DNA of 6,284 nt from the NCBI GenBank assembly GCA_008932965.1, contig WBXG01000076.1:1-6284 (forward strand), read 5' to 3'. This document shows positions 929 to 1,172 of this stretch, piece by piece. Numbering within the stretch: the first letter of the stretch is position 1; each line of letters starts with the position of its first letter. The translations under genes were made by a program, and so were the position numbers. This DNA is from Verrucomicrobiota bacterium (lineage in GTDB: Bacteria > Verrucomicrobiota > Verrucomicrobiia > Chthoniobacterales > UBA6821). The notes under the pieces were generated by a model that was not told the origin of the DNA, did no database searches, and was given only the letters and a program-made list of their open reading frames with translations.

Positions 929-1172
929 ACCCCATATTTTATACTGGTTCGTCGCGAGGCGTCACGAATCCTGATGCAGAGACCACCGGCGGTCGGGAGA
1001 CCGCGGGGGAGATTGCCCTGGCTTTAAGGGGGCAGACCTGAAAGGGCAAGGCGAGCGATGAAGTCTGACGACTGCAGTGTGTATACACACTGCCCGAGGA
1101 AGACTTCGAGATCAACGCAGCATCCATCTAACTTCCCGGCTTCCGCAGTAGATCGGGATGAAATATTCGGGT
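929..1172 (+). repeat. Copy A (full length, GC-rich) of an unclassified inverted-terminus repeat family; MITE-like element or candidate structured ncRNA
   Basis: The termini 929-949 and 1151-1172 are imperfect inverted repeats, flanked by TAA (926-928) and TAA (1173-1175). The 5' module (ACCCCATATTTTATACTGGTTCG...GAGG...ACGAAT) is homologous to 2765-2815 and to the reverse complements of 6236-6281 and 6056-6099. The internal box TTCGAGATCAACGCAG (1105-1120) matches the reverse complement of 6154-6169 at 15 of 16 positions. The interior 951-1150 is about 60% G+C by hand count, and the flanks are AT-rich. Strand is assigned from G-U wobble directionality (see findings). Confidence 0.8.

Follow-up and report, generated by a model that had tools for sequence, protein, structure and literature searches.

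The stretch of DNA analysed here, which we call the window, comprises 6284 bp (about 40% G+C) of contig WBXG01000076.1 from a Verrucomicrobiota bacterium, and it contains a repeat that an original prediction, made from the letters of the sequence, had taken to fold as RNA around positions 1059-1120. Our data show that this segment is the apical hairpin of one copy (copy A) of a MITE (miniature inverted-repeat transposable element), a non-autonomous DNA transposon with a modal length of about 176 nt, of which copy A is a 242-nt variant. The helices of the element are kept by compensatory changes between subfamilies, and mismatches within its stems tend to be G.U (and purine.purine) on a particular strand, the sense strand. 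The reading that we favour, with moderate confidence, is that purifying selection acts on the pairing of this strand in single-stranded form, most likely as an RNA hairpin formed on transcription. Of the earlier claim that the repeat folds as RNA, the strand-specific fold is upheld, but RNA as the folding molecule is plausible rather than proven, since G.T and tandem G.A pairs also stabilise single-stranded DNA (ssDNA).

The assignment to a MITE family rests on a scan for the pattern of the terminal inverted repeats (TIRs), which was run on one genome per species and recovered 84 loci, designated by L numbers below. Nearly all of them come from four metagenome-assembled genomes (MAGs) of Chthoniobacterales/Spartobacteria, Kiruna_bin-02438, Tobar2m-G38, Deming_bin.170 and SMAG_U8253, and the family is abundant in the genomes of this lake and soil Verrucomicrobia group; the sample consists of 8-kb pieces that cover parts of the four MAGs and total 0.55 Mb. 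In loci and window together, a TIR of about 22 nt with the consensus CCCGGATATTTCATACTGATCG stands at both ends of the element, and there are 208 TIR matches and 70 TIR pairs, the lengths of which peak sharply at 176-177 nt. A covariance model, built from a MAFFT alignment of 43 copies with the structure taken from folds of the individual copies, has 220 matches, equivalent to about 100 distinct copies; all searches considered, the 0.55 Mb hold more than 100 copies, and the element contains no transposase gene. The copies are flanked by 4-bp direct duplications of the form YTAR, and because these include the non-palindromic pairs CTAA..CTAA and TTAG..TTAG, a 4-bp duplication is proven and a TA-only duplication of the IS630 type is ruled out. 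Abutting copies share a duplicated site (for example 6054-6098, CTAG and 6103-6280 of the window), one element is inserted within another (L074:2408-2766), and a low-molecular-weight (LMW) phosphatase gene provides an occupied and an empty orthologous site, with the insert in L022 and without it in L012.

Among the MITE properties tested, the TIRs, the target duplication, the small size in many copies and the mobility were all found, the exception being a cognate autonomous insertion sequence (IS). The 4-bp YTAR duplication is typical of IS5-group and IS701-family elements as described in ISfinder, and it points to a transposase of IS5-group or IS701 type as a candidate source of mobility. No autonomous partner with the same TIRs, and no transposase gene bounded by them, was found in the 0.55 Mb of sampled loci, which cover parts of four MAGs. 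TIR pairs lying 0.6-3.5 kb apart in the loci enclose ordinary genes and no transposase, no multi-copy open reading frame (ORF) that could be a transposase candidate was found in the loci or in the 20-kb contexts of a MITE-borne ORF, and the five matches to the TIR pattern in viral contigs include no real copy.

In the window, the G+C-rich islands between the genes are copies of this one repeat, and four copies or fragments are present (copies A, B and C and a fragment at 6054-6098), with the following features:

926-929: TTAA target-site duplication to the left of copy A; the same four bases stand at 1172-1175.
930-1171, sense on + strand: copy A, a complete 242-nt MITE that belongs to the long class (family alignments, covariance model, fold).
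930-951, + strand: left TIR of copy A, with a tip that is degenerate against the family consensus (ACCCC for CCCGG).
975-1050, + strand: additional GC-rich module of copy A's left arm, which brings two further hairpins and is partly truncated (class A alignment and fold).
1059-1108, + strand: apical hairpin of copy A, with outer stem 1060-1066/1101-1107, a purine-rich internal loop and the palindrome 1074-1093.
1105-1120, + strand: TTCGAGATCAACGCAG box of copy A, made up of the 3' side of the outer stem and the following internal loop and helix.
1150-1171, + strand: right TIR of copy A (repeat finding, family comparison).
1172-1175: TTAA target-site duplication to the right of copy A.
2762-2765: CTAA flank of copy B (sequence reading, repeat finding).
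2766-2880, + strand: copy B, the 5' two-thirds of the element (model positions 1-113), without the right arm (nhmmer, blastn).
6054-6098, - strand: fragment with the first 45 nt of the element (model positions 1-45), after the tmRNA terminator and abutting copy C (nhmmer and inverted repeat).
6099-6102: CTAG common to copy C, of which it is the target duplication, and to the fragment.
6103-6280, sense on - strand: copy C, full 178-nt MITE (covariance-model match, fold).
6281-6284: CTAG target-site duplication to the right of copy C.

The covariance model scores copy C at 132.5 bits on the - strand compared to 51.8 on the + strand, and its match to copy A covers 1002-1171 with 65 bits. All copies in the window are intergenic and are closed by stop codons in all reading frames.

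In order to judge the fold, it has to be borne in mind that TIRs and a YTAR duplication, the architecture of a MITE, lead one to expect a long imperfect palindrome from architecture alone. In all subfamilies the predicted fold is a single rod-like hairpin of the same shape that runs from TIR to apex. The RNA fold of copy A reaches -96.5 kcal/mol on the + strand (z = -3.7) and -85.4 kcal/mol on the - strand, and that of copy C -86.7 kcal/mol on the - strand (z = -10) and -71.4 kcal/mol on the + strand. The blocks that distinguish the subfamilies differ in sequence yet stay complementary in the flagged stem, as GAAGUCU/AGACUUC, CAUUUUGA/UCAAAAUG and GGAUUGC/GCAAUUC. RNAalifold applied to the MAFFT alignment returned the TIR stem and the apex only, because the modular subfamilies misalign in the middle of the element, and the structure was therefore taken from the folds of individual copies and counted on the ordinary MAFFT alignment of the 43 copies. 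In that alignment 83.4% of the cells are paired, compared to 32-42% when the 3' partners are slid, and 28 of the 71 pairs have changed on both sides (147 cells). The covariation score of 0.193 was reached by none of 500 shuffles (0.140 +/- 0.004) and is about twice that of the slid structures, so that the covariation of helices proposed from two copies holds across the family.

The strand that the original prediction had called sense folds more stably in 42 of the 43 copies, with means of -85.3 and -71.4 kcal/mol, and shuffles indicate that composition explains about 4 kcal/mol of this difference. A covariance-model alignment that mixes both strands of each copy gave more G-U than A-C in 41 of 59 informative pair columns, but its structure comes from sense-strand folds and may favour G-U; we therefore rely on a strand-symmetric self-alignment, in which each copy is aligned to its own reverse complement with a symmetric score and only mismatches flanked by Watson-Crick pairs are counted. 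An even split between G-U and A-C had been named beforehand as an outcome that would count against RNA folding, and it is absent: about 100 copies have 308 G-U and 97 A-C isolated stem mismatches, or 129 and 23 when two flanking Watson-Crick pairs are required. G-U exceeds A-C in 81 individual copies and the reverse is true in 9, and the excess persists when distinct sequence contexts are counted once (205:89, 63:22 and 25:6).

Changes private to a copy relative to its five nearest relatives point the same way, 50 of them turning a Watson-Crick pair into G-U and 24 into A-C. Taken as a whole, the private changes on the sense strand form a symmetric spectrum (76 for A>G plus C>T compared to 65 for T>C plus G>A), which excludes strand-biased mutation as the cause of the G-U excess. 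Two particular candidates were rejected as well: a transcription-coupled C>T bias, as private G>A changes (42) are at least as frequent as C>T changes (40) on the sense strand, and avoidance of stop codons, as A>G and T>C cannot make stops. Among A-U pairs, 26 private changes led to G-U and 8 to A-C.

At the level of single bases, reading the sequence bears out all that had been proposed for copies A and C. On the + strand of copy A the closing helix has the pairs 940:1160 (U.G), 945:1155 (U.G), 947:1153 (G.U) and 949:1151 (U.G), and the base of the hairpin has 1059:1108 (U.G). In copy C the pairs 6116:6267 (C:A on the + strand), 6120:6263 (A:C) and 6168:6213 (A:C), and one more within 6140-6150/6231-6241, are G-U on the - strand, in agreement with the strand-symmetric self-alignment of this copy, which yields three G-U and no A-C isolated mismatches. 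The outer stem of copy A (1060-1066, GAAGUCU, with 1101-1107, AGACUUC) is perfectly complementary, 1074-1093 (GCAGTGTGTATACACACTGC) is a perfect 20-nt palindrome, and the loop between them, GACGA (1067-1071) facing GAGGA (1096-1100), allows the pairs G.A, A.G, C-G, G.A and A.G. C1072-U1073 and C1094-C1095, which had gone unmentioned, are unpaired. The compensatory differences between the two copies are real (GAAGUCU/AGACUUC compared to GGAUUG/CAAUUC, and CACAC/GUGUG compared to CAUAC/GUAUG). The box TTCGAGAYCAACGCAG was described as nearly invariant, and this is true between copies A and C but not in the family as a whole, which keeps only GA...ACGCAG.

The tandem G/A loop occurs in two of the three main subfamilies only, and a kink-turn or loop-E reading of it was set aside, the loop being symmetric and subfamily-specific. 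What is (nearly) invariant in 43 of 43 copies is a GA dinucleotide on both sides of an internal loop whose flanking helices covary (A1 alignment columns 63-64 and 114-115, about 1057-1058 and 1108-1109 in copy A). The pairing register of the facing dinucleotides varies among subfamilies, and these bases might represent either a tandem G.A motif that is conserved or a site for protein binding. The local hairpin is stable against shuffles (z = -5.3), but the 56-nt hairpin by itself is nearly strand-neutral (-24.9 compared to -22.6 kcal/mol), which means that the strand asymmetry stems from the whole element.

In the model that we favour, pairing of the sense strand as a single strand would be kept by purifying selection in the lineages that propagate, and transcription of the element would produce the RNA hairpin that is most likely the selected form. 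RNA is the simplest single-stranded form in which a selected fold could exist, and it has good precedent. The hairpin might then serve RNase III-type processing as a long double-stranded substrate, or form a structure at transcript ends, as in the Correia, ERIC and bcr1 repeats. MITE transcripts are described as folding into hairpins, with RNase III cleaving Correia elements at their paired TIRs, and ERIC elements have orientation-dependent effects on mRNA stability (PMC10969869). A conserved, transcript-like hairpin within a MITE is thus no surprise in view of what is known of Correia, ERIC, bcr1 and similar repeats, and part of the value of the present family lies in its size and modular make-up, which allow a test of which strand is under selection.

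Several observations weigh against this model. The mismatches concerned, G.T and tandem G.A, are stable in ssDNA too. The copies show no co-orientation with genes, as in tandem gene contexts anti- and co-oriented copies number 21:9, 14:9, 13:9 or 16:13 depending on the ORF cut-off. By the GC skew of masked flanks, the sense strand of about 150 copies lies preferentially on the locally C-rich strand (87:53, p = 0.005; 37:19 per locus; 48:24 among 176-nt copies; Spearman -0.34). This bias could arise from purging of co-oriented copies or from insertion that is oriented by replication or transcription; in the window, the coding strand of fabF is the G-rich strand. The G-U excess is alike in both contexts, with isolated mismatches of 75:22 and 145:25 and private changes of 14:6 and 36:18, which speaks against selection through the host transcript of each copy and makes the constraint look like a property of propagating lineages. 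When a symmetric pair list is placed on the MAFFT columns, the excess is not significant (private changes 26:15, p = 0.12; columns 31:20), and the shared ancestry of the copies inflates all of these counts relative to the independent events behind them. Some recombinant copies persist in which the two arms derive from different subfamilies and the central helices are unpaired (L007:1110-1285, L057:1618-1793 and L036:276-451). Scans of the element for promoters and terminators gave nothing convincing. A comparison with Rfam, a check that the original prediction had called for, found no family that matches the element in the window (E <= 1) or in five loci (E <= 0.5), the only other matches being to tmRNA, tRNA and, below threshold, 6S RNA.

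Some of these points are what one would expect if the fold under selection were ssDNA, for instance a sense-strand hairpin formed in transposition or replication in which the TIRs join as a duplex on the exposed strand, so that lineages with G.T-tolerant pairing on that strand keep propagating. Such an explanation accommodates an asymmetry that does not depend on the transcription around individual copies, an orientation that tracks local strand composition, as for replication-coupled elements, and mismatches that DNA tolerates as well as RNA. We nevertheless regard it as unlikely, because TIRs with a fixed 4-bp duplication are the mark of DDE transposases, which work on double-stranded DNA, and the known ssDNA transposons (IS200/IS605, IS91) make no such duplication. 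The composition argument is also double-edged: the sense strand prefers the C-rich strand, which, if it is the leading-strand template, is not the exposed one, and in 8-kb MAG pieces the local skew is inseparable from gene orientation.

An intermediate possibility, to which we assign a similarly small share of our belief, is that this seemingly ordinary DDE-type MITE depends for its spread on a strand-specific single-stranded intermediate, RNA or ssDNA, and also behaves like the palindromic elements of Rickettsia (RPE) in supplying in-frame 60-residue inserts to essential genes of uncultured Verrucomicrobia. A single-stranded intermediate in spread would explain G-U-tolerant pairing wherever the copies land. 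The usual account, a hairpin in host mRNA, does not fit neatly with a context-independent G-U excess in copies whose orientation is also biased against the G-rich strand, and with this family one could examine whether a single-stranded stage is required by some MITEs.

A quite improbable alternative is that no fold is selected at all: the palindrome would derive from paired IS ends or fold-back copying, the compensatory changes from arm-to-arm template switching or recombination between subfamilies, and the G-U excess by inheritance from a small number of founders. The subfamilies are indeed modular and recombinant copies occur, many G-U positions are common to large groups of copies (one column pair is G-U in 73 copies), and the symmetric-pair analysis was not significant. 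Neutral decay or template switching, however, predicts a G-U:A-C ratio of about 1:1, and the observed ratio is 3-6:1 for isolated mismatches and 2.3-4:1 for distinct contexts. Private changes, which stand at 2:1 although the overall private spectrum is symmetric, and the majority of informative pair columns with more G-U than A-C argue in the same direction.

The coding capacity of the element was considered separately, as some copies lie within protein genes. Among 97 full-length copies in the related loci, 14 fall within stop-free frames that span the whole element and extend to as many as 1194 codons in all. The phase is constant, the YTA of YTAR serving as a Leu codon that R follows, and since 176 + 4 = 180 nt, exactly 60 codons are added; a single longer case adds 93. 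Pfam domains of the host proteins continue on both sides of the insert in PheT, PyrF, GlnD, LMW phosphatase, type I dehydroquinase and a PMT-family glycosyltransferase. The in-frame copies include:

L050:4458-4633: in pyrF.
L029:3796-3971: in pheT.
L025:3871-4046: in glnD.
L022:5006-5181: in the LMW phosphatase gene.
L078:728-903: in an aroD-type dehydroquinase gene.
L036:276-451: in a PMT-family gene.
L052:1176-1351, L004:2312-2487 and others: further in-frame copies.

The LMW phosphotyrosine phosphatase orthologs illustrate the effect, as residues 1-25 and 89-209 of the product of L022:4843-5553 align to residues 1-25 and 29-149 of that of L012:5698-6147. A protein search with the 60-residue insert found short ORFs on intergenic copies and no long host proteins. 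The former are represented in the public protein collection by 'hypothetical proteins' of 57-99 residues (P0001-P0022, one labelled Chthoniobacterales), and short entries of this kind on the MITE are very likely annotation artefacts of an open frame in the repeat.

It could be argued that keeping one frame per strand open for such inserts produces the strand asymmetry. The host genes are real, the phase is fixed, and the permissive frames +2 and -2 are open in 29 and 40 of the 97 copies compared to 1-12 for the other four frames. We consider this very unlikely all the same: the strongest asymmetry, that among private changes of A-U pairs, involves A>G and T>C, from which no stop can result, the in-frame copies are divided equally between sense and antisense (7 each), the majority of copies, those of the window without exception, are intergenic with stop codons, and the G-U excess is still present in copy C, whose frames are all closed. 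In-frame insertion does not account for the G-U bias. Equally hard to credit is that all or some copies are independent, trans-acting small-RNA genes with the G/A loop and box as a recognition motif. G63-A64 and G114-A115 are indeed invariant and facing, with covarying flanking helices, and MITE-derived small RNAs are reported in Coxiella (PMC5896051, PMC10969869), but the scans found no internal promoter or terminator, Rfam gave no match, the box and loop vary among subfamilies, and the copies are mobile, nested, truncated and found within genes.

Within copy A, positions 1-127 are 91% identical to L056:1031-1296 and positions 109-242 are 89% identical to L034:4684-4859. The long class to which copy A belongs has an additional GC-rich module, about 95 nt long, in its left arm. 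This module, CCACCGGCGG...GCGAGTCAA, is in sense orientation in the left arm in class A (window 975-1050, L022:3111-3385, L043:334-610) and reverse-complemented in the right arm near the apex in class B (L031:104-374, L029:6174-6445, L073:3167-3437); the two versions align with a score of 66, compared to -7 +/- 9 for shuffled sequences. Possibly the module is what remains of a longer ancestor, or else a second small mobile unit.

By sequence comparison the window is placed in a fifth genome, related to the four MAGs, its fabF product being 82% and its tmRNA gene 80% identical to those of L050. Copy C is 92-96% identical to the MAG copies L028:3688-3865, L018:5797-5974 and L012:343-520, whereas orthologous proteins of the genomes that carry these near-identical copies share only about 75-83% identity. 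The difference suggests recent spread of the MITE between lineages or else unusually strong conservation. The remaining features of the window are:

1-708, - strand: 5' part of a gene for a Big_7-domain protein.
1254-2663, + strand: FAD-linked oxidase gene.
2901-3803, + strand: unannotated ORF of 300 residues.
3828-5126, - strand: fabF.
5193-5579, + strand: DUF4870 gene.
5628-6009, + strand: tmRNA gene, standard and non-permuted, with the predicted tag AKNATFAASLGETAALAA.
6023-6048: terminator of the tmRNA gene.

The MITE fragments begin 5 nt past the tail of the tmRNA terminator, and the MITE lying downstream of the tmRNA gene in L050 sits inside pyrF. A 53-nt inverted repeat (2664-2716 and 2904-2956, 72% complementary) brackets the truncated copy B and all of the intergenic DNA that separates the FAD oxidase gene from the next ORF; it has no further occurrence among the fetched loci, and its outer end has a 14-nt perfect match at 78-91. 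The sub-threshold 6S RNA match lies at L029:5802-5981 and adjoins the MITE-bearing pheT; with 40 bits compared to a gathering score of 46.4 (E = 7e-5), it is possibly a real 6S gene of this lineage.

By sequence the element belongs to none of the Correia, ERIC, bcr1 and RPE repeats. The Correia elements of Neisseria (CREE/NEMIS) are the closest in design, being MITEs with TIRs and a TA-containing target duplication that are abundant, lie beside and within each other, and fold as a whole into a long hairpin, in read-through transcripts for Correia and by prediction here. Correia elements are documented to be cut by RNase III at the paired TIRs (PMC10969869), and we infer that the same mechanism might apply to the present MITE. 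The two families differ in that Correia elements have a TA duplication, a length of 100-155 bp and an IHF site, compared to a 4-bp YTAR duplication and 176 nt here, and they have no sequence similarity and belong to different phyla, the present one to Verrucomicrobiota.

The bcr1 repeats of the Bacillus cereus group and the ERIC repeats of Enterobacteria are transcribed intergenic repeats with flanking direct repeats. In bcr1, structure at the RNA level is kept by compensatory base changes (PMC3184786), and the helices of our MITE likewise covary; bcr1, however, forms a cruciform with two stem-loops and the MITE a single rod. Effects on expression and of orientation have been demonstrated for bcr1 and ERIC, whereas the MITE is known from its sequence and has no co-orientation with genes.

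The likeness to RPE is one of function only. Both are palindromic repeats that fold as hairpins, RPEs being 100-150 bp long. To our knowledge RPEs have no clear TIRs or target duplications, and we know of no account of how they are mobilised; the present family has TIRs, a duplication and a fixed phase (YTA as Leu, 60 codons), and its copies in the window are all intergenic. Insertion in frame into unrelated housekeeping genes, where it is tolerated as an extra peptide, is described for RPEs (PMC10969869, PMC3184786), and by analogy the in-frame copies found here can be regarded as RPE-like behaviour outside Rickettsiales, which would extend the phenomenon to environmental Verrucomicrobiota and link it to a classical transposon with TIRs and target-site duplications.

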